DNA of 64,000 nt from Thermodesulfobacteriota bacterium (GCA_965263275.1 OZ253668.1:1756857-1820856); one strand, 5' to 3'; numbered from the stretch's first letter, positions 50,707-62,616 are shown. Notes: generated from the letters alone by a model not told the origin. Numbers and translations are program-made.

Positions 50707-52062
50707 TTACTGGACCGAAATTCTGCTTTGTATGGCGTCTCTTACGGTCTTGTAATCGTTTGGAAGTTCCACCGGAGCGTTTCTCAGCTCAGACGATATC
50801 CCCTCAAGGACTGACTTATGGTAGCCGGCTTTGAACTCCACGAACTTCAGTCCGTGAGCGGTGGAAACGACCACTATTTTTTCCTTCGGGGAAAGAACCT
50901 TTTTCTTAAGAAGTTTCAAAAACACCGCGAGCGCGACTCCGGTATGGGGACAGTTAAAGGTGCCCGTTCTGTCCGCCATTGCCGAGGCGTGGGAGAGTTC
51001 GTCTTCCGATGCCTGTTCAACGACTCCGTCGAATCGCCTGAGAATCGAAATCGCTTTGTTGATGCTTACGGGGTTTCCGATCTGTATGGCGTTTGCGAGG
51101 GTTTTTTTCGCTCTTACCGGGACAAATTCGCTGAAGCCCTTAAGGAAGCTCAGGTAAAGAGGGTTTGCGTTCTGCGCCTGCGCGCAAACTATTCTCGGAA
51201 GTTTTTTTATGAGACCGAGGTCATACATCATCAAAAATCCCTTTCCGAGCGCGGACACGTTGCCGAGGTTGCCGCCCGGAATTATCACCCAGTCCGGAAC
51301 TTCCCAGTTAAACTGCTGGCAAAGTTCTATGCTTATCGTTTTCTGCCCCTCTATGCGCAGGGAGTTAATGGAATTTGCGAGATAGATATTATGCTCGCTC
51401 GTGATTCTCTGGACCATCTCCATGCAGCCGTCAAAATCGGTGTCCAGGGAAAGAACCAGGGACCCGTTCGAGATGGGCTGAATCAGCTGAGCAATGGATA
51501 CCTTGTCTTTGGGAAGAAAAACTATTGAGGGAATGCCTGCTGACGCGCAGTAGGCGGCCAAGGCAGCCGAGGTGTCCCCTGTTGAGGCGCAGGCGACCGC
51601 CGGGATGCTCATATTGTCGCTTATCATCTGGTTTACGGCCGAAACAAGCACGGTCATCCCCAGATCCTTAAAGGATCCCGTGTGGCTGTTGCCGCACATC
51701 TTTATCCAGAGATCCTCAACGCCGACGTGTTTTCCCAGCCTCTCGGCCCAGAAAAGATTCGTGCATCCCTCGTACATTGAAACTATGTTTTCGTTTTCAA
51801 TAGAGGGCAGTACCCACTCCTTTTTCCCCCAGACTCCGCTTCCAAAAGGCCAGGACTGCTTTCTGTATCTGCTGTCGAAAAGCTCTCTCCACTGCTCGGG
51901 CGTTTTTTGCCCGAGAGTTTCCATGTCGTGCTGAACGTCGAGAAGGTTGTTGCACTTCCTGCATCTGTAGATGATCTCATCAAGGGGATAGGTCTCAGAG
52001 CAATTCTCGTCGATGCATCTGAAATGGGCTCGGTATTCACTCATCAAGCTAACAAGGTACAT
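50707..52062 (-). CDS. thrC: Threonine synthase (long form with N-terminal Zn-ribbon)
   Basis: [26 protein letters not shown] (Zn ribbon). PLP lysine region FKDLGMT. 451 aa. Confidence 0.9.
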   Translation of the reverse strand: MYLVSLMSEYRAHFRCIDENCSETYPLDEIIYRCRKCNNLLDVQHDMETLGQKTPEQWRELFDSRYRKQSWPFGSGVWGKKEWVLPSIENENIVSMYEGCTNLFWAERLGKHVGVEDLWIKMCGNSHTGSFKDLGMTVLVSAVNQMISDNMSIPAVACASTGDTSAALAAYCASAGIPSIVFLPKDKVSIAQLIQPISNGSLVLSLDTDFDGCMEMVQRITSEHNIYLANSINSLRIEGQKTISIELCQQFNWEVPDWVIIPGGNLGNVSALGKGFLMMYDLGLIKKLPRIVCAQAQNANPLYLSFLKGFSEFVPVRAKKTLANAIQIGNPVSINKAISILRRFDGVVEQASEDELSHASAMADRTGTFNCPHTGVALAVFLKLLKKKVLSPKEKIVVVSTAHGLKFVEFKAGYHKSVLEGISSELRNAPVELPNDYKTVRDAIQSRISVQ

Positions 52063-52326
52063 TTTGCCTTTTTTTCTGTCAACGCCTTGTAGACCCTACG
52101 CCAAATTTTCCATCGCTTTGAGGTTTAAGGGTTTGTGTTTTTAATTAGCTGTAGCGCTGAGCAAGAAAGAACCTAAATTTTTGGCACTCCCGAGAAAAAA
52201 GGGTGGAGTGAAGCGAAAGCATTTGGTGGATATGTCCACGTGCTGTTGCCGATGGAAACAGATTTCGGGACGCTGTCGCGGCCGTATTCTCGGCACATCG
52301 TCAATCATAAGATTCCCTAAAAAACC

Positions 52327-52356
52327 TTGACTCTGAGCCGATTTTGAGTTTAGAAT
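52327..52356 (+). promoter_or_regulatory. Sigma70-like promoter for A1 (SRCR protein gene)
   Basis: TTGACT (52327-52332), 18-nt spacer, TAGAAT (52351-52356). AAGGAGG RBS before ATG 52446. Confidence 0.45.
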
Positions 52357-52445
52357 AGGAACAAACGGTTGGTTGTTACTTACTGATCATTGCAAGAGCG
52401 GGAAGATCAATCGGCGGGGGTTTGTAACTATTGAAGGAGGTCTTA

Positions 52446-53324
52446 ATGATGAAAGGAGTAAAATGTATTGGAAAGGCAGTTCTGATTATGGCCGTGTTTT
52501 TTCTTTTTGGTTCCGGGAATGTCTCGGCGGCAGAGGAGAATACCGTTCAGACTCTGTGGTCGGCAACTATGACGGTAGGCAAACACTATTCCACTAAGGA
52601 GGGTAGGGATCTCTACGGATATTACGGTGGTAACACCCCAGCCGCTGGCGCTCTCACCAGCGACACTTTCAGTTACAACGGTGATGAATACAAGGTTTAC
52701 GAGATCGATAAGATCGGTAATATCGTAGTGTTGGGTTTTCGGTCTGGTGGTGGTGCTGGTTATGAAATTTTAAAGACGGAATCGATTGAAAAGAACAAAA
52801 CTTTTTATCTGAATATCGGGAATTCCGTGGAACTTGATTTCAGGGACCGGGTCATCCCTACCGAGGAAGACGATGAAGACTATTTTTTGCACGAGAGTGA
52901 GATACGGCGCAACTGGTTAAACCAGAGATATAACTGGAGCGAAGGTCAGCAAGTCAGTGTAAGCATAACCACCAAAGCTCTTGACGGAGGTCTCAGGCTG
53001 CCTCCCGATGGCAATGGAACAAGCGGGGAATTAGGCATATTTGATGACCCCAATAACGATGGTACTGGGCAGTGGGAGAGAATATGCGATGACAATTGGG
53101 GTGATACGGACGCGGAGGTTGCGTGCAGCCAGTTAGGCCTCTCTGGGGGCACTGCGACAATCGGAATACGGAATGCATCCATGACCACCGCAGAAACCTT
53201 CTTGCTGGACGAGGTAATATGCGATGGCACGGAAGACAGGGTAATTGACTGTCCTCATGACGGCCGTGGCGTGCACGATTGCGCTGCGTGGGAAATTGCC
53301 GGGGTTACTTGTACTTCCCCTTAA
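52446..53324 (+). CDS. Secreted protein with C-terminal SRCR (scavenger receptor cysteine-rich) domain, copy A1
   Basis: Signal peptide MMKGVKCIGKAVLIMAVFFLFGSGNVSA. C-terminal …GQWERICDDNWGDTDAEVACSQLGLSGG…ETFLLDEVICDGTEDRVIDCPHDGRGVHDCAAWEIAGVTCT reproduces the SRCR consensus …GxWGTVCDDxW…A.VVCRQLG…CxGxE…L..C.H…H.C.H.EDAGV.C. Confidence 0.75.
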   Translation: MMKGVKCIGKAVLIMAVFFLFGSGNVSAAEENTVQTLWSATMTVGKHYSTKEGRDLYGYYGGNTPAAGALTSDTFSYNGDEYKVYEIDKIGNIVVLGFRSGGGAGYEILKTESIEKNKTFYLNIGNSVELDFRDRVIPTEEDDEDYFLHESEIRRNWLNQRYNWSEGQQVSVSITTKALDGGLRLPPDGNGTSGELGIFDDPNNDGTGQWERICDDNWGDTDAEVACSQLGLSGGTATIGIRNASMTTAETFLLDEVICDGTEDRVIDCPHDGRGVHDCAAWEIAGVTCTSP

Positions 53325-53352
53325 ACCATTTCAATAAAACTTGGGAGTTAAG

Positions 53353-54579
53353 ATGAATATGAACAGATTATTAAGACTGGCGGTATTTCTATGTGTTCTT
53401 GCGGTTGTATTCTCTGATGGACGCATTGCTGTGGCCAGTGACGTTCCCGGGCGTATAACGGCCGGGGAAGTTACGGATGATGAGAGCCTGATGAAAAACT
53501 TCGTTGAATACGCGGCGGGACGTCTTCAGGACTCTGCCAGCTTTGCGGATGCGTTAAATCTGCTATACGATTTCAGGAAGGTCGGGGGAGACTGGAATGA
53601 AGATTCCACGTACCTGATTCTTCTCTCAAGAAATGGGGGAGTGTACCTTCACGGGAGGAACAGGGAGCTTGAAGATCAGGACTGGTCTGATCTTCAGGAC
53701 GCAACGGGGGAAGATGTCGGGCAGAAGTTCCTGCAGGGCGGTTCTGTTGAGTATTACGGAGAAGGAGATCAGAGTTCCAGAGTGAGTTACGCATTTCCGT
53801 TTTCTGCTCCCCATATTCCTTTTGCGAACCCGGATGAACCTAAGTTCGTGCTGGTCGGGGGTTTTGATTACGAGCCTGAGCCCGAAGATTTTGGAGGAGC
53901 GGAAGTTTCTTGCGGGGAGTTTTTTGCTTCTTATGGTTTGCAGCAGGGGCTGTGTCCAACTGTGGGTGCCAGAGATGTGAGCACCCTTGATGACCTGAAG
54001 GTGTTTGTGGATGAGGCAAGGCATTTTTTTACAGCGGCCTTGGTAGCCCCGCAAATTGATCCCGTGCTATTGCGCAGGATATTCAGGCTTGATGGGCCGT
54101 GGAAACATGTCTCCACTTACATTTATATTATGGATGATACGGGCAGGGTGATATTTAACGGTGCGAATAGAGACATTGAGCAGATGGATTTATGGAACAA
54201 CGAGGACAACAACGGGGATAAATTCATTCAGGAACTTATTGCCACTGCGGGGACGGGTGAGACTGTGGAATATAATTGGGAGAATCCGGCTGTGGAAGGA
54301 GACGGTGAAGGCGCTGGTCCTGGAGGCGATTCACCCAAGCTGGGCTACACGATAAGGATCCCTGTTCCGGTTGAGGAAGAGGGCGAGACGAAGAGAAATT
54401 CAAGCCGTGTCTACATTTTTGGTTCGGGAATTTATTTTGGAGAACAGGATGGGCAGTCCAGTGGTGAAGGTTGTGTGATCGCCGGTGCTGAGGATACCAT
54501 TCAAAACGGTTTGTTGAGTTTGTTCTTAATCCTATCTGCGTTGCTTTTGGCAGTTTCATTAAAAAGACGTTCAGTTTGA
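53353..54579 (+). CDS. Secreted protein with two tandem sCache_2-like domains and a C-terminal hydrophobic anchor plus basic tail, copy A2
   Basis: Signal peptide MNMNRLLRLAVFLCVLAVVFS. Two internal repeats (…STYLILLSRNGGVYLHGRNRELE…GGSVEYY… and …STYIYIMDDTGRVIFNGANRDIE…GETVEYNWENP…) fit the single-Cache pattern. Ends …DTIQNGLLSLFLILSALLLAVSLKRRSV. Confidence 0.55.
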   Translation: MNMNRLLRLAVFLCVLAVVFSDGRIAVASDVPGRITAGEVTDDESLMKNFVEYAAGRLQDSASFADALNLLYDFRKVGGDWNEDSTYLILLSRNGGVYLHGRNRELEDQDWSDLQDATGEDVGQKFLQGGSVEYYGEGDQSSRVSYAFPFSAPHIPFANPDEPKFVLVGGFDYEPEPEDFGGAEVSCGEFFASYGLQQGLCPTVGARDVSTLDDLKVFVDEARHFFTAALVAPQIDPVLLRRIFRLDGPWKHVSTYIYIMDDTGRVIFNGANRDIEQMDLWNNEDNNGDKFIQELIATAGTGETVEYNWENPAVEGDGEGAGPGGDSPKLGYTIRIPVPVEEEGETKRNSSRVYIFGSGIYFGEQDGQSSGEGCVIAGAEDTIQNGLLSLFLILSALLLAVSLKRRSV

Positions 54580-54812
54580 AAATAGCTGGTAGTGCTTGAA
54601 TTTGCGAAAGATTTAAAACGGTGCGTCAAGCTAGCTGACATAATATCAGGGTAGCCTGTGAGAGTAACTGCCCTGATATTATGTTGTGCGTCTCTTCATC
54701 CGCGGTCTAGACGGAGTGGCAGTGCTTGCTGTCCAAGCGAGCAGCAAGAAAACTTCGTATCCGTAGCACTGAGTCACTTCTCTCTTTCTTTGGGGCTGTC
54801 TGGACCCCCCCC
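54580..54812 (+). ncRNA. Conserved structured non-coding element (copy 1) downstream of A2, candidate sRNA or structured 3' UTR
   Basis: Collinear with 60137-60362. Contains a long hairpin (cataatatcaggg…ccctgatattatg) and a second hairpin (cttgctg-tccaagcgag-cagcaag). The small ORFs the track calls here change frame between the two copies while the nucleotides stay conserved, which argues for RNA rather than protein. Confidence 0.4.
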
Positions 54813-55151
54813 GATACCCTTTATCAAGCTTGATTTAGCGGAAATTTTAAAACCAAGTTAAGTTGAAATTCACGGGCCACTCGATCGAGAGCTACCTGCC
54901 CCCCCTGCGCCTCTGAGCGCCTACTGGGGACTTGTGCCTCGGTCGAGTGCCGTGATGAATGATGTCCAGTAGGACTTTCTACCATTAATCAAATCAAAAA
55001 ACAATAAAAATTAAAGAATCGGGTGTGGCTGCAATCCCGCTTGATCTACAGACTTACATGGGATATTCGCGGCATTTGCCTTTAACCTCTCCTTCGTCTC
55101 GTTGGCAAGTCCAGGCAGTTATCAGTCGATCTATGTTTCTATAAGTCCTCC

Positions 55152-56381
55152 TTATGACGTTGCAAAGTTCTTCTCAAACAGCACTCCCTTTTCAAGCAGT
55201 GTGCACGCCACGTAAAGAAGACGGTCTCCCACCGAGCGCAAGGCCCTGTAATGACCGTGTCCCCTCCCGCGAAGCGCGTTGTATTTAGCCCTGCTTGCAG
55301 GGTCGCCCTGAATTGCCGTTCGAGCCCAGTGATAAATTGCGTTGACAAGTCTTTTATGCGAGGCTCTTCTTTGCGTAACGCGCTTGCTCTTTCCCGACTG
55401 CCTGGTTACCGGAGCCACGCCGCTTAGGCTGCGAAGCGATTTGTAATCGCGACGCCGAAACAGTTCACAGGCTTCACCGAGCATTGCGGCGAGCACAATC
55501 TTTCCCACCCCGGGAATTGACAGTAGAATCTCGACATCGTCGAATTCCGCTTCCCCTCGGCCGCTGCCGCCGACAGATATGATCCGAGAGTCAATCAGCT
55601 TCTCGGCATCCTTAAGCTGCCTCAGTACTGCTATCATGCGCTCCACAATGCTTTGAACGCGCATAACGCAGCCGCTTGCGGTTGCCGGGAAGATGTTCAT
55701 CTCCTTTGATCTCAGGATCTCCAAAACTCCTTTGGCGTCAATGCGGCGGATACCATGGCGCTTTAACAGTTTTTCAATCGTCCGAGGTCTTGCGCGCCTT
55801 GCGGCCTGCGGGGTGGGCACGCGTTGCCATAACTCGAGGAGCCATGGATGAAAGCGCTCGCCAATCAGTTCATTGAACTGGGGATAATACTTCCACAATT
55901 GCGCGCGCATGCGAGCCGCCAGGCGAGTGCGCTCCCCTACAAGCTCTTCTCTCATGCGGGAGAGTTCCCGAAGTTCTATGATGATCGGTTCCGGCGCCGT
56001 GAGTCTGCGGAAGTGACGTATATCCGTGCCAAGCGCCGAAGCAAGCACATGCGCGTCGCGGCGGTCGTCCTTCGCTCCCGAGGGAGAGAACCGGTCCCTG
56101 AACCGATCCAGCTGCTTGGGATTGATGGAATGGACACAGAAGCCGCGAGCCATAAGGCTTTCCACAACGGGACCGTGAGGCACCTCGATAGCCGCGGCGA
56201 CTTGCTGCGGTCCGGACTCGCAGACATCCACTATCCATTGAACCATCTCGCCGAGGCCTTTTCCCCCGTGGGGGAAAGAACGCTCTCCCAGGATGGAACC
56301 GCTCTGGTCAATAACGCAGACTTGGTGGGATTGGGAACCCCAGTCAATGCCCGCGAGGAATTTATAATTAACGGATTGCAT
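55152..56381 (-). CDS. IS110-family transposase/recombinase (DEDD RuvC-like N-terminus + C-terminal Tnp domain), element 1
   Basis: …FLAGIDWGSQSHQVCVIDQSG… (DEDD_Tnp_IS110 N-terminal domain) and …LLSIPGVGKIVLAAMLGE…APVTRQSGKSK… (Transposase_20 domain). Confidence 0.85.
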   Translation of the reverse strand: MQSVNYKFLAGIDWGSQSHQVCVIDQSGSILGERSFPHGGKGLGEMVQWIVDVCESGPQQVAAAIEVPHGPVVESLMARGFCVHSINPKQLDRFRDRFSPSGAKDDRRDAHVLASALGTDIRHFRRLTAPEPIIIELRELSRMREELVGERTRLAARMRAQLWKYYPQFNELIGERFHPWLLELWQRVPTPQAARRARPRTIEKLLKRHGIRRIDAKGVLEILRSKEMNIFPATASGCVMRVQSIVERMIAVLRQLKDAEKLIDSRIISVGGSGRGEAEFDDVEILLSIPGVGKIVLAAMLGEACELFRRRDYKSLRSLSGVAPVTRQSGKSKRVTQRRASHKRLVNAIYHWARTAIQGDPASRAKYNALRGRGHGHYRALRSVGDRLLYVACTLLEKGVLFEKNFATS

Positions 56382-56684
56382 GATAAGTTAATACCTCCTA
56401 GTCATTAAATCGGGTCGGCCGTGATTACTTCCTATTCCAGTACGGGTGCTCCAGGGCACAGACTTTCTACCGGGAATAAAATCACGGTATTCGGTCGAGG
56501 CGCATGTCCTACCGAGGCACTCTTGGTGCGGGAAGTTACAAGGCAGCTCTCGACCGAATGACCCGTGTTTCTATTTAAACCTTAATTTCGCTGAGAAAAA
56601 AACCGAAGGAATGGTACTGGAAGTTCGTGCCTCTGAGCACCTCCGTATCGGAGCAGACACACACATCACGGCAAACCCGATTTA

Positions 56685-57968
56685 ATGACTAGGAGGTATT
56701 ACTATATCATGAACAATGATAAATCATTATTTTTTGCAGGCGTCGACTGGGGATCCCAATCCCACTACGTCTGCCTCATTGACCAAAACGGTTCCATTCT
56801 CAAGGAAAACTCCTTCAGGCACAGCGGCGAAGGCCTTTGGAATATGGGTGACTGGTTAATTGAAGAGACAGGCTCAATCCCGGAGAATGTCGCCGTAGGA
56901 ATTGAAGTCACTCGCGGTCCCGTCGTGGAAAGCCTCATGGCTCGCGGCTTTGATCTTCACTCCATCAACCCAAAACAACTGGACCGATTCCGCGACAGAT
57001 TCTCCGCCGCCGGAGCGAAGGACGACCGCAGAGATGCCATGGTGCTCGCCTCGGCTCTTCGTACCGACAGACGTCACTTCCGCTCTCTGGAACCCCAGTA
57101 CGAGGATATCACGATCCTGCGCAGCCTCTCGCGCAGAAGAGAGGAACTTGTGTTTGAACGCAATCGCTGGACTAATCGACTGAGCGACCAGTGGTGGACT
57201 TACTATCCCCAGTTCAAAGAAGTGGTGGGCGACGACACTGTCCGCCCCTGGATTATTGAATTATGGAGACTTGCTCAAACACCTGATGCCGCAAGGCGAA
57301 TCAGAGTGTCCTCTGTGCAGAAGATACTCAAGCGCCACAGAATACGACGTATCGACGCGCAGCAAGTGCTTGGGATTATTCGCTCAAAAGAAATAAACCT
57401 CATGCAGGCAACAGTTTCAAGCTGCGTTTGGCGTGTGAAGAGCATTATTGAGTTCCTCGATATCGTCAACAGACAGCTCAAGGAAATCGAGACCCGTATC
57501 AAGGAGATGCTCCATTCAATCATCTCTCGGGAGAAAACTGAAAACGCGGGGACAGGAAAACCAAGCGATGTCGAAATCCTCCTGTCCATGCCGGGAATCG
57601 GCTTTGTCACTGCCGCCACGCTGGTCTCCGAGGCTTATGATCTGATACGACGACGCGACTACAAGGCGCTTCGGTGCGTTGTCGGCACAGCTCCGGTGAC
57701 AAAACAGTCGGGCAAGAGCAAGTATGTCATGCGGCGCCGAACATCGTCTCGCAGACTTCAGACAGCGATCTACCACTGGGCAGGGGTAGCGGTTCTGCAC
57801 GATCCCGTAAGCAAAGCCCGCTACGCCTCGCTACGGGCACGGGGACTGCGCCATTCCAGGTCTCTTCGCACCGTCGGCGACCGTCTTCTCTATGTTGCCT
57901 GCACCCTGCTCAAAAAAGGAGAAATGTTCCGCAAAGACTTCAAGGAACTGCAAAAGGAAGCCGCCTGA
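56685..57968 (+). CDS. IS110-family transposase/recombinase, element 2 (about 55% identical to element 1)
   Basis: …FFAGVDWGSQSHYVCLIDQNG… and …LLSMPGIGFVTAATLVSE…APVTKQSGKSK… Same domain order as element 1 but clearly diverged. Confidence 0.85.
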   Translation: MTRRYYYIMNNDKSLFFAGVDWGSQSHYVCLIDQNGSILKENSFRHSGEGLWNMGDWLIEETGSIPENVAVGIEVTRGPVVESLMARGFDLHSINPKQLDRFRDRFSAAGAKDDRRDAMVLASALRTDRRHFRSLEPQYEDITILRSLSRRREELVFERNRWTNRLSDQWWTYYPQFKEVVGDDTVRPWIIELWRLAQTPDAARRIRVSSVQKILKRHRIRRIDAQQVLGIIRSKEINLMQATVSSCVWRVKSIIEFLDIVNRQLKEIETRIKEMLHSIISREKTENAGTGKPSDVEILLSMPGIGFVTAATLVSEAYDLIRRRDYKALRCVVGTAPVTKQSGKSKYVMRRRTSSRRLQTAIYHWAGVAVLHDPVSKARYASLRARGLRHSRSLRTVGDRLLYVACTLLKKGEMFRKDFKELQKEAA

Positions 57969-58076
57969 TAGCGATTGCCAACAGGCTTCCCAATAGAAAA
58001 AACGAGGAGGCGCCTCAAAAAAACTGAATCCGCTATATATATAAATTTAACACTTGATGAAAGGTAGGAAGTCCCC

Positions 58077-58609
<533 letters not shown>

Positions 58610-58981
58610 TTAAGTAGCCGTAGCGCCCAAGAAAAAACATGTTTGCCACTGCACCCGCTGGGAAAGTTCTGAACGAAGAGACTATAATGGCGCTTACCCG
58701 CAAACTGTTACCGAAGGACCCGGATTTGGGACGCCGTCGCGATCGTATTCTCGCTACATTTTAATCATAGGATCATCCAAGCCAACTGGGCTGAGAAAGT
58801 ATTCGGAGAAGGTAGTTTCTTCGGGGATGAGCTGGGCGAAGATATGTCTCAAGGAAGCTGGATTGGAGGACATCTTGGCCTGTTTCAGGCCGTCTTTGGC
58901 CACGGGGGGATAGCCATTTTGAGATGCTAAGCCGCCTTGCCAGATAATAATTCACGGTATGAGATGGCGTACCATTCAAAT

Positions 58982-59011
58982 TTGACTTTGAGTTGACCTC
59001 CCTTATATAAT
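58982..59011 (+). promoter_or_regulatory. Sigma70-like promoter for B1
   Basis: TTGACT (58982-58987), 18-nt spacer, TATAAT (59006-59011). AGGAGG RBS 8 nt before GTG 59108. Confidence 0.45.
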
Positions 59012-59107
59012 AGAACTAACTAGTCGTTTGCTATTTATCGGTTGTTACGAGGTTTCGGCGGAAAGGGTCAGGCGGCGGGGATTTGTAACTGTTCAGGAGG
59101 TGCTGAT

Positions 59108-59941
59108 GTGAAAGCGGTAAGATGTATTGGAAAGGCAGTTCTGATTATGGTCGTGTTTTTTCTTTCTGGTTCCGGGAATGTCTTAGCGCAAGCTAATTCT
59201 GTACAAACTCTGTGGACGACAACCTTTACTGTAGGAAGTTTTACTGACAATAACGGTATATTTGGCGATGAAGGTACGTTTTACTCTGGATATGACGGTG
59301 CCACGCGTATAGGCAGTATCAGCGATTACAATTTCTCTTATGAAGGTGTTACTTATAAAGTTAAGGCCATTGTGAGAGTCGGCGATAGGGTGAGACTTGA
59401 ATTTTATAATCCAGCTTTTAGAACGGCAGGGAGCCACAAGAACAGAACTTTTTATCTGAATATCGGGGATTCCACATCGCTTGATTTCAGAGATGAGGAT
59501 TCGGATACAGCAACCACATGGCGAGGGGTGCGACGCGACTGGACAGGCCAGACATATGACTGGACTGACGGTCAGGAAATCAGTGTCAGCATAACCACCA
59601 AATATCTTGACGGAAGTCTCAGCTTACCTTCTGATGGAACGAGTGGAAAATTAGGCATATTTGATGACCCCGATAACGACGGTACTGGGCAGTGGGAGAG
59701 AATATGCGATGACGAATGGGATAATACGAACGCGGAGGTTGCGTGCAGCCAGTTAGGCTTCTCTGGGGGCACTGCGACAAGCGAACAGGGTGCATCCCTT
59801 AGCATCGCAGAAACCTTCTTGCTGGACGATGTAGACTGCGATGGTACGGAAGACAGGGTGATTGACTGTGAGCATGCCGGTCGTAACATGCACGATTGCG
59901 CTGCACAGGAAACTGCCGGGGTTATTTGTACTTCCCCTTAA
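59108..59941 (+). CDS. Secreted protein with C-terminal SRCR domain, copy B1 (diverged paralog of A1)
   Basis: GTG start with RBS. Signal peptide VKAVRCIGKAVLIMVVFFLSGSGNVLA. SRCR region …GQWERICDDEWDNTNAEVACSQLGFSGG…ETFLLDDVDCDGTEDRVIDCEHAGRNMHDCAAQETAGVICT. The N-terminal domain is only about 45% identical to A1, whereas the SRCR half is about 85-90% identical at the nucleotide level. Confidence 0.75.
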   Translation: MKAVRCIGKAVLIMVVFFLSGSGNVLAQANSVQTLWTTTFTVGSFTDNNGIFGDEGTFYSGYDGATRIGSISDYNFSYEGVTYKVKAIVRVGDRVRLEFYNPAFRTAGSHKNRTFYLNIGDSTSLDFRDEDSDTATTWRGVRRDWTGQTYDWTDGQEISVSITTKYLDGSLSLPSDGTSGKLGIFDDPDNDGTGQWERICDDEWDNTNAEVACSQLGFSGGTATSEQGASLSIAETFLLDDVDCDGTEDRVIDCEHAGRNMHDCAAQETAGVICTSP

Positions 59942-59969
59942 ACCATTTCAATAAAACTTGGGAGTTAAG

Positions 59970-60136
59970 ATGAATATGAACAGATCATTAAGACTGGTGG
60001 TATTTCTATGTGTTCTTGCGGTTGTATTTTCTGATGGACGCGTTGCTGTGGATACCATTCAAAACGGTTTGTTGAGTTTCTTTTTAACCCTGTCAGTATT
60101 GCTTTTGTCCATATCATTAAAAAGACGTTCAGTTTG
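59970..60136 (+). pseudogene. Internally deleted remnant of the sCache gene (signal peptide fused directly to C-terminal anchor, 55 codons)
   Basis: MNMNRSLRLVVFLCVLAVVFSDGRVAVDTIQNGLLSFFLTLSVLLLSISLKRRSV. The junction gctgtgg|ataccattc corresponds to A2 gctgtgg(53437)… and …gctgagg|ataccattc (about 54492), i.e. a microhomology-mediated deletion. Confidence 0.7.
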
Positions 60137-60362
60137 AAAATAGCTGGTAGTGCTTGAATTTATGCGCAGTGCGCCGAGCTAACTAACATAATATCAGGGT
60201 AGCCTGTGAGAGTAGCTACCCTGATATTATGTTGTACGTCTCTTCATCCGCGGTCTAGACGGAGTGGCAGTGCTTGCTGTCCAGGAGAGCAGCAAGAAAG
60301 CTTCGTTATCCGTAGCACTGAGTCACTTCTCTCTTTCTTTGGGGCTGTCCGGAAGCCCCCCC
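60137..60362 (+). ncRNA. Conserved structured non-coding element (copy 2)
   Basis: Perfect 18-bp hairpin acataatatcagggtagc / gctaccctgatattatgt (60186-60232) and a second hairpin cttgctg…cagcaag. Compensatory differences relative to copy 1 improve the pairing. Confidence 0.4.
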
Positions 60363-60416
60363 AATCCCCACATTCATTGACACCAAGATAGGCTTTCGGT
60401 AATCTGGGAGAGTCGG

Positions 60417-60710
60417 ATGGAACAAAGAGCGCTTATCCTCGTGAAGGGAAGGGTACAGGGAGTTTATTTCAGAGTCTCAGCGGCGCAGACGGCGGCTAAG
60501 CTTTGCATCAGGGGACACGTGGAAAACCTTGCGGACGGTAACGTGAGAATAGTCGCCGAAGGAACGACCGAGAACCTCAAGAAACTGATCGAGTGGTGCG
60601 GAGAGGGCCCGCCCCGCGCGAAAGTGGAATCGGTTGAATTCAATTTGCTGCCCCCGGAGGGAGGATTCATCGGTTTTCGCATAAACAAGACTCAGAGGAG
60701 ATCAGATTGA
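60417..60710 (+). CDS. acyP: Acylphosphatase
   Basis: [19 protein letters not shown]…RGHVENLADGNVRIVAEG…L…GPP.A.V. 97 aa, with the acylphosphatase signatures VxGxVQGVxFR and GxVxNxxDGxV. Confidence 0.9.
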   Translation: MEQRALILVKGRVQGVYFRVSAAQTAAKLCIRGHVENLADGNVRIVAEGTTENLKKLIEWCGEGPPRAKVESVEFNLLPPEGGFIGFRINKTQRRSD

Positions 60711-61797: not shown

Positions 61798-62616
61798 GTG
61801 GATAATATGGAGCAGGAAGAAACATTTCGCCATACTAAAAGGCTCGGACAGAATTTTCTGAACGACCCAAACATACTGCGTAAAATCAGCGCTGCCGCAG
61901 AACTCCGGGAAGAAGACCATGTGATTGAAATCGGTCCCGGCAAAGGCAGCCTCACCGAACATCTCACGCTTGGTGCCGGCAGAGTCACGGCGATTGAAAA
62001 AGACAGTAGACTCAAAATCTTTCTTGATGAAAAATTCGGAGAATCCGAAACCGTCAGGTTTGTTTACGAAGACGCCCTTAAAGTCAGTTTCAGTCGTTTT
62101 TCCGCTGGAGGAGAAATGAAGCTCGTATCCAATCTTCCCTATAATATATCCACCCGGATTCTGCTGAAGCTTCTTGATGAAAGAGAGCTTTTCTCGAAAA
62201 TAGTCGTCATGCTGCAAAAAGAAGTGGCGCAGAGAATATCCTCTCCAAGGGGACGAAAAAGTTACGGTTCCCTGTCTGTGCTTCTTCAGAGTTGTTTCAG
62301 TATAAAGCTTGCCTTCAAAGTTTCGCGCCGCGCGTTTTATCCGGTTCCCGATGTGGATTCGGCGGTGGTGATCCTTGATCCGCTGAAAGAACCCGTGTTT
62401 TCGGTATCAAGAGAGAAGATATTCAGGGCCGTTACAAGGCATGCGTTTTCCTCGCGGAGAAAAACCATAAGGAATTCGCTCGGTAATTTCTTTGAGAGGG
62501 AGACAGTTGAGCGGGCACTTTCCGATTCGCGTATCGATCAGGGAAGAAGGGCTGAATCGCTTTCAGTTGAGGAATTCGCGAGATTGGCGGACAGTTTCCA
62601 CGAAATAAATCAGTAG
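61798..62616 (+). CDS. rsmA: 16S rRNA (adenine1518/1519-N6)-dimethyltransferase
   Basis: …RLGQNFLNDPNILRKI…VIEIGPGKGSLTEHL…LVSNLPYNIST… is canonical KsgA/RsmA. Confidence 0.92.
   Translation: MDNMEQEETFRHTKRLGQNFLNDPNILRKISAAAELREEDHVIEIGPGKGSLTEHLTLGAGRVTAIEKDSRLKIFLDEKFGESETVRFVYEDALKVSFSRFSAGGEMKLVSNLPYNISTRILLKLLDERELFSKIVVMLQKEVAQRISSPRGRKSYGSLSVLLQSCFSIKLAFKVSRRAFYPVPDVDSAVVILDPLKEPVFSVSREKIFRAVTRHAFSSRRKTIRNSLGNFFERETVERALSDSRIDQGRRAESLSVEEFARLADSFHEINQ

Follow-up and report, generated by a model that had tools for sequence, protein, structure and literature searches.

Evidence for an inherited head-to-tail duplication of an SRCR-sCache island between thrC and acyP in a Candidatus Dadabacteria chromosome

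RESULTS

Gene content and repeats of the thrC-acyP region

The stretch of DNA analysed here (the window) comprises 64,000 nucleotides of a Thermodesulfobacteriota bacterium (GCA_965263275.1 OZ253668.1:1756857-1820856). The chromosome is that of a Candidatus Dadabacteria member, and between its thrC and acyP genes lies a head-to-tail duplication, very probably real and inherited, each unit of which contains an SRCR gene and either a complete sCache gene or a remnant of one. The genes named in a preliminary description of this DNA (thrC, two SRCR genes, sCache, two IS110 transposases and acyP) were all borne out by Pfam. Self-BLAST, the check that description had asked for, was run together with a repeat finder on 49-64 kb of the window and recovered all of its repeats: (i) 51710-52313 with 58170-58773 (E = 0), (ii) 52905-53434 with 59531-60051 (86%, 2e-179), (iii) 54483-54819 with 60041-60369 (87%, 4e-117) and (iv) 58077-58184 with 60378-60485 (93.5%, 1e-41). 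The repeat finder agreed on each. The features of the region are listed below; handles beginning with L denote loci and contigs of other genomes, introduced in the following sections, and ISa and ISb are the two insertion sequence (IS) elements.

50707-52062, minus strand: thrC, intact threonine synthase, 451 aa (Pfam PALP; residues 1-451 match relatives at 99% identity)
51722-52062, minus strand: repeat arm A, the first ~114 codons of thrC, within the intact gene
51722-58181: duplication unit 1, comprising the thrC 5' end, an island in which SRCR1 and sCache1 are both intact, a remnant of the spacer and an acyP 5' fragment (3,204 bp excluding the IS insert)
52089-54775, plus strand: island copy 1, lineage-specific (alignments to L001-L014; no tblastn match in L001-L080)
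52424-52482, plus strand: gene-conversion tract (window copy 1 against copy 1 of L081/L082; matches copy 2 at most sites)
52431-53324, plus strand: SRCR1 (Pfam SRCR, 2.8e-17; protein alignment)
53341-54579, plus strand: sCache1, intact (Pfam sCache_2 and dCache_2)
54580-54812, plus strand: non-coding element 1 (hairpin-rich sCache 3' region to 54775, then ancestral thrC-acyP spacer remnant ending in a poly-C run)
54813-54974, plus strand: ISb left end, part 1 (100% identity to solo ISb copies in L092 and L094; covarying stem)
54975-56621, minus strand: ISa, ~1,645 bp, IS110 family (solo ISb continuous across the insertion point; Pfam)
56622-58068, plus strand: remainder of ISb, with donor-binding loop region, transposase and right end (finishing in ...GGTAGGAAGT)
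58069-58181, plus strand: repeat arm B, acyP promoter/ribosome-binding site fragment and codons 1-22 (= 60378-60482)
58166-58184: duplication junction patch, join at 58181/58182 (comparison with ancestral sequences; identical in L081 and L082)
58182-60482: duplication unit 2, 2,301 bp (self-comparison)
58182-58522, minus strand: truncated thrC copy, ~114 codons, 98.2% identity to 51722-52062 (inside a listed open reading frame [ORF], 58163-58555)
59042-59941, plus strand: SRCR2 (Pfam SRCR, 2.2e-19)
59958-60137, plus strand: sCache remnant, 59-aa ORF (deletion junction 60051/60052)
60138-60416, plus strand: non-coding element 2, native spacer and acyP promoter region with C7-AAT-C4 and TTGACA (alignment)
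60417-60710, plus strand: acyP, intact acylphosphatase, 97 aa (Pfam, 2.8e-24)

A single novel join connects acyP to thrC

The two units are direct, adjacent and in the same orientation, as self-BLAST and alignment both show, and the head-to-tail geometry with an acyP-5'/thrC-5' junction, as first described, therefore stands. Its details required correction. The join had been placed at 58172/58173; alignment with acyP, thrC and the relatives' ancestral-type sequences moves it ~9 nt to the right, to 58181/58182, where acyP codon 22 meets thrC codon ~114. Likewise, a copy of the thrC 5' end does lie beside a copy of the acyP 5' end, but the extents become ~114 thrC codons and 22 acyP codons in place of ~118 and 19. 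The acyP-derived stretch consists of these 22 codons (58116-58181) and 47 nt upstream; the thrC-derived stretch (58182-58522) is followed by thrC upstream sequence. A reading of the truncated thrC as ~125 codons, counted from the listed ORF start at 58555, was rejected, since the homologue of the thrC start codon occupies 58520-58522.

The junction falls inside an imperfect homology patch of 13-15 nt (acyP CAGAGCCTCGGCG versus thrC CAGAGATCCTCAACG), with the crossover at the final CG. The ORF at 58116-58394 reads through acyP codons 1-22 into antisense thrC and is, as had been stated, a product of the junction.

The same junctions are present in other assemblies

Homologue searches based on sCache and SRCR2 identified two contigs from different European Nucleotide Archive (ENA) assemblies and different samples: L081 (ERZ28763718, 42 kb) and L082 (ERZ25074053, 30 kb). 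Across the region, both match the window at 98-99% identity and have its gene order (thrC, SRCR, sCache, truncated thrC, SRCR, sCache remnant, acyP). The 76-nt duplication junction sequence and the junction of the deletion in the second sCache copy (see below) are identical base for base in L081, L082 and the window, and the deletion junction is also present, unchanged, on a short contig, L083. The IS110 pair is missing from L081 and L082, the empty site in L081 reading GGAC9TGACACC. The duplication and the deletion are older than the strain split.

These contigs bear on misassembly, which the preliminary description had named among the findings that would refute its reading. An assembler could have joined two strain haplotypes, or a collapsed repeat, head to tail; the organism is uncultured, its relatives are metagenome assemblies, and the comparison is one of assemblies. 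However, two assemblies from different samples, which differ in IS content, contain both the novel junction and the deletion junction, and the duplication junction connects non-homologous genes through ~2-8 nt of homology, which is not enough to cause an error in the assembly graph. Because the same junctions recur in other assemblies, we consider an assembler artefact very unlikely, to the point of being nearly negligible.

One further difference among these strains lies outside the duplication: at window ~62605-62610, L081 and L082 have ~510 extra bases with a 112-aa ORF (no Pfam match) that are missing from the window.

The island occupies a spacer that is otherwise short or differently filled

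A thrC-anchored scan, with one genome per species, gave 80 loci (L001-L080), all from metagenome-assembled genomes (MAGs) of Candidatus Dadabacteria / Thermodesulfobacteriota; several of these MAGs have isolate names suggestive of sponge metagenomes. Among the closest relatives (L001-L009 and others, whose flanking genes are 96-98% identical at the nucleotide level), thrC and acyP are immediate, divergent neighbours across a gap of ~83 nt. A tblastn search found no SRCR, sCache or related IS110 gene within 10 kb at any of the 80 loci. The arrangement thrC-SRCR-sCache-acyP, which had been proposed as the single-copy ancestor, is absent from these 80 relatives, where thrC directly adjoins acyP; the cassette itself is the insertion. 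A single-copy island at thrC-acyP was likewise found in none of the 80, the island being present only in the duplicated strains (L081 and L082), and scans of Joint Genome Institute (JGI) metagenomes with the island's left boundary and with a conserved SRCR stretch gave no matches.

Alignments to the relatives place the thrC-side boundary of the island after GTCAACGC (~52088) and its acyP-side boundary before CTTCTCTCTTTCTTTGGGG, which belongs to the ancestral spacer (~54776 in copy 1, ~60325 in copy 2). Both units have the same island-spacer boundaries and therefore point to one island insertion before the duplication. On this comparison, the SRCR-sCache cassette is a lineage-specific island in the thrC-acyP spacer.

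The corresponding spacer of other relatives is filled with unrelated cargo and is therefore an insertion hotspot. The identities of this cargo were taken from ORF translations, without a Pfam check. We take the cargo of L010 (7273-10000) to be P450-like and sterol-reductase-like ORFs and that of L011 (8128-10000) and L015 (8047-10000) to be epimerase/3-beta-HSD-like and fatty-acid-hydroxylase-like ORFs; L020 (7464-10000) presumably has a TnpB-like ORF, and L025 (8277-9700) may have a toxin-antitoxin-like pair.

The hotspot raises a second possibility, namely that two related cassettes were inserted independently and site-specifically between thrC and acyP, as by an integron or integrative element. 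In addition to the varied cargo of other relatives, a surplus partial copy of the acyP 5' end is retained in L011 (9866-9915), which would fit such a history. However, the second unit opens with 341 nt of thrC coding sequence and the first closes with 22 acyP codons, neither of which a spacer insertion would copy, and the island-spacer boundaries are identical in both. We found no integrase or recombinase and no att or attC-like sites bounding the cassette, SRCR and sCache being the only island ORFs with Pfam matches, and, apart from the duplication arms, the repeat finder detected no direct repeats at its flanks. Independent insertion is thus highly improbable.

The window acyP (60378-60710) is only 86-87% identical to that of L001-L003, compared with 97% for the gene that follows it downstream. 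These values suggest either that recombination brought acyP in together with the island or that the gene evolves unusually fast.

The SRCR and sCache genes and the deletion in copy 2

SRCR1 is predicted to be secreted; it has a signal peptide, its N-terminal half is variable and uncharacterised, and the SRCR domain is at the C-terminus. Its start codon is likely near 52446-52449. SRCR2 is a divergent allele with 56% amino-acid identity to SRCR1 and a likely start at 59108, upstream of which is a promoter-like site (58982-59011). In L081, a 1.3-kb IS30-like element (HTH_38 and rve; L081 7772-9093) lies just upstream of SRCR1, between the positions equivalent to window 52422 and 52449, and alters the called start to give a protein of 345 aa. 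Exact-sequence look-ups of the window thrC and SRCR2 products returned no match, and Pfam gave nothing meaningful for the variable N-terminal halves of SRCR1 and SRCR2 or for the junction ORFs.

sCache1, a Cache-domain protein, has a signal peptide and, at its C-terminus, a hydrophobic tail, and belongs to a family for which the homologue search found more than 100 members, mostly in Dadabacteria. Copy 2 of this gene has, as first described, undergone a microhomology deletion; alignment refines its size from ~1.07 kb to 1,059 bp and shows it to be in frame. The lost sequence corresponds to copy-1 positions 53435-54493, between TGCTGTGG and TGCTGAGG, and the junction (60051/60052) lies at the microhomology TGCTG-GG (8/9 nt). 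What remains is a 59-aa ORF in which the signal peptide is fused to the C-terminal tail.

A third SRCR-sCache allele is found in another context (L084/L085), and on L098 (3866-6224), a complete relative genome and the contig of L002, an SRCR (396 aa) and sCache pair lies between aroQ and murJ. The recurrent pairing suggests that SRCR and sCache work together as a module.

The non-coding element is not a known RNA, since an Rfam scan of 49-64 kb, this element included, gave no family at E<=0.1; in the third allele (L084) only its first ~90 nt are conserved. No terminator-like site was found in 58000-60500.

A nested IS110 pair in copy 1

Copy 1 of the window carries an IS insert of 3,256 bp (54813-58068) in its poly-C run, a run that was lengthened by a ~13-nt deletion of the old acyP promoter. 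The two IS110 transposases point away from each other (55152-56381, minus strand, in ISa; 56685-57968, plus strand, in ISb), and both ORFs match Pfam DEDD_Tnp_IS110 and Transposase_20. A later IS110 insertion in copy 1, as originally proposed, is upheld, but the pair is not side by side. The ISb transposase (56685/56709-57968) is found, identical, as a solo element at at least 10 other loci (L087-L096 among the contigs), and solo ISb runs continuously from window 54813-54974 into 56619/56622-58068; ISa is therefore nested in the ISb left end, at CAGTAGG/AAGTTCG (slash, insertion point). Two side-by-side, head-to-head elements, possibly forming one mobile composite, were considered and rejected as a side-by-side arrangement on this ground.

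The same nested 3,256-bp structure is present at a second locus, L086, with 99.9% identity. This could reflect movement of the composite or independent retargeting by ISa, the latter being at least as likely. The loop sequences of ISa, AACUUCC and GUAGG, match its own insertion site in ISb. At L086 (3851-7212), the nested pair adjoins a Hachiman-type defence pair (HamA domain and DEAD/ResIII helicase). A third related IS110 element (L097 2760-4600) has an ISa relative (86% identity) at the equivalent position of its left end; the first loop of this third element is AAUUUUACC instead of C7 and its transposase is missing; a gene for a group II intron reverse transcriptase follows.

All 12 of 12 ISb insertions are in C runs, with the form C5-12/GATACCC...GGTAGGAAGT/CCCC. 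In L088, the insertion site of one ISb is the C7 guide region in the left end of a second ISb (self-targeting). Solo ISb has a left end of ~250 nt, a right end of ~100 nt and no terminal inverted repeats, and its left end forms a long stem, with 9 compensatory pairs across 4 homologues, that encloses variable loops. When these loops are read by the bridge-RNA rules of PMC11208160, loop 1 (predicted target-binding; 54813-54974) has CCCCCCC on its 5' side, which equals the left target, and GGGG on its 3' side, the reverse complement of the right target; loop 2 has GUAGGAAGU on its 5' side, which is the right-end terminus, and GUAUC on its 3' side, the reverse complement of the left-end start GATAC. 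ISb is thus a poly-C-targeting IS110-group element with a predicted bridge RNA.

Similarity between the units is mosaic

Identity between the units varies sharply along their length: 98.2% in the thrC 5' end (6/341 sites differ, 1.8%), 90% in the SRCR signal peptide, 56-73% in the SRCR N-terminal half, 85.5% in the SRCR domain, 96.5% from the SRCR stop to sCache codon 31, 87% in the sCache 3' end, 87-94% in the non-coding element and 97% in acyP codons 1-22. Along SRCR, synonymous divergence (dS) is 0.11, 0.87 and 0.20, versus 1.8% in the thrC fragment, a neutral pseudogene piece some of whose changes are younger than the strain split. The ratio of nonsynonymous to synonymous divergence (dN/dS) across SRCR is 0.6-1.15. 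Because dS itself is heterogeneous along the gene, protein selection alone cannot explain the mosaic.

The two thrC 5' copies share derived bases relative to L001-L003, and each has private changes; both copies, on these grounds, are native to this lineage. At 52424-52482 there is a cluster of sites where window copy 1 departs from copy 1 of L081/L082 and equals copy 2 at most sites, which we read as a strain-specific gene-conversion tract from copy 2 into copy 1. The SRCR1 N-terminus of L082 at this tract resembles other alleles. A further allele, P0122, is chimeric, with alternating SRCR1-like and SRCR2-like blocks. The heterogeneous synonymous divergence, the tract and the chimeric allele agree with the earlier suggestion that the locus is not the product of one recent event and has undergone conversion or allele replacement.

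There are at least two ways in which the divergent segments could have arisen. In the first, the tandem duplication is old, SRCR diverged in place under relaxed or diversifying selection, and the near-identical segments were later homogenised by conversion. Conversion between the copies demonstrably occurs (52424-52482), and the dN/dS values indicate weak constraint. However, a dS of up to 0.87 and intergenic sequence that is barely alignable far exceed the 2-4% that separate this lineage from the island-free L001-L003, and the island would have to have been lost precisely in every sampled relative. In the second, already diverged allelic sequence was imported by recombination, at or after the duplication. 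Divergence in place to a dS of 0.2-0.9 is unparsimonious, since the spacer is clean and island-free in relatives only 2-4% away; import is most likely, and in-place divergence rather unlikely.

A different view of the same mosaic is that the thrC-acyP spacer is a selected variation locus, which keeps tandem, divergent SRCR alleles and reshuffles them to vary a host-facing, eukaryote-like secreted protein. Symbiont variants with different SRCR proteins would then arise from conversion between the copies and from recombination through either pair of arms (thrC, 341 nt; acyP, 105 nt), and the Cache-domain partner would be needed in one copy only. In favour of this view, the strains share the structure, SRCR is intact in both units but sCache only in the first, the alleles are mosaic and one is chimeric, and either unit could be removed cleanly through the repeat arms. 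No deletion variants were found, however, dN/dS is below 1 in the variable half, and the IS insertions and the deletion look like decay, not maintenance. Both the maintenance of the alleles by selection and their reshuffling through the arms therefore seem to us quite improbable.

DISCUSSION

Proposed order of events

The locus would have developed as follows. (i) thrC and acyP were divergent neighbours, ~83 nt apart. (ii) A two-gene island, encoding a secreted SRCR protein and a Cache-domain protein, entered the spacer. (iii) One illegitimate recombination would have connected acyP codon 22 to thrC codon ~114 at the imperfect patch ending in CG, a geometry that is read directly from the join and a mechanism that we propose; the outcome would be two tandem units (thrC 5' end, island, acyP 5' end) between an intact outer thrC and an intact outer acyP. 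(iv) A diverged allele may have been brought in, either through unequal or homology-facilitated illegitimate recombination between strains at the duplication itself or by later allele replacement, and gene conversion between the copies would have continued afterwards. (v) Before the sampled strains split, copy 2 lost the 1,059 bp of sCache in frame at the 8/9-nt microhomology, and copy 1 the ~13 nt of the old acyP promoter, giving the longer poly-C run. (vi) In the window strain only, ISb came to lie in this run, with ISa nested in its left end; a sister strain instead has the IS30-like insertion upstream of SRCR1. The IS insertions are recent and strain-specific.

Several points weigh against an inherited duplication with an imported allele. 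The junction rests on assemblies, that of the window among them. L081 and L082 are 99.8-99.9% identical to each other and amount to about one independent lineage besides the window. L082 is, moreover, a 6x-coverage contig with a scrambled patch in its thrC fragment: at L082 7980-8125 (window ~58503-58522), the truncated thrC contains a 125-nt patchwork of short re-used pieces (71, 21 and 42 nt), which either was scrambled by local slippage or is a sequence error of the low-coverage contig. Because no strain with a single-copy island at thrC-acyP was found, we infer both the order island-then-duplication and the source of the divergent allele. Finally, an old duplication in place with conversion of its flanks, unlikely as we judge it, would be an alternative. 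We nevertheless consider the head-to-tail duplication very probably real and inherited.

The mechanisms (tandem duplication at microhomology, recombinational mosaicism, microhomology deletion and IS110 targeting) are all known; the instance is new and of modest interest. It offers a clean, cross-validated case in which a bacterium that is uncultured and probably sponge-associated gained a host-interaction island that was later eroded, in the order hotspot insertion, tandem duplication at microhomology, recombinational allele mosaicism, deletion and IS invasion, and indicates that the structure seen in the assembly is real biology and not an artefact. A by-product is an IS110 element with readable predicted bridge-RNA guides and a homopolymer C target, which is directly testable. 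The value of the analysis lies in annotation quality and in a starting point for a population-level study of SRCR allele diversity.

Comparison with known systems

The duplication resembles microhomology-mediated (RecA-independent) tandem duplications in that (i) direct units abut without a spacer, (ii) there is one novel distal-to-proximal join at a few bases of homology and (iii) the outer genes are intact, with truncated copies at the join. It differs in that the copies range from 98% down to less than 60% identity, the structure is stably inherited across strains and not transient, and the duplicated cargo is a recently acquired island.

Homology-facilitated illegitimate, or unequal, recombination between strains has been worked on in Acinetobacter and Streptococcus pneumoniae. 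It would fit a join with one end in a homologous flank and the other at a GC-rich microhomology, and would set a donor allele beside the resident one, giving conserved flanks and a divergent interior. The present case differs in that no donor strain or single-copy allele was found.

Eukaryote-like proteins of sponge symbionts (PMC4850255, PMC5845141), and SRCR expansions in sponges themselves (PMC10855680), provide the background for the island genes. The likeness lies in the presence of an SRCR domain, which is typical of animals, in a secreted protein of a bacterium, and in close relatives that include MAGs with sponge-metagenome-like isolate names. Here, by contrast, a Cache-domain gene consistently accompanies the SRCR gene.

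Among IS110-group elements with a bridge RNA, of which IS621 (PMC11208160) is an example, ISb shares (i) a DEDD and Transposase_20 recombinase, (ii) a long left end, a short right end and no terminal inverted repeats, (iii) strict target choice and (iv) a left-end stem whose two internal loops match targets and ends by the published rules. It differs in that its target, as read from insertion-site sequences, is a homopolymer C run. The ISb copy of the window differs further in having ISa in its donor-binding loop, and its predicted bridge-RNA gene is therefore split.

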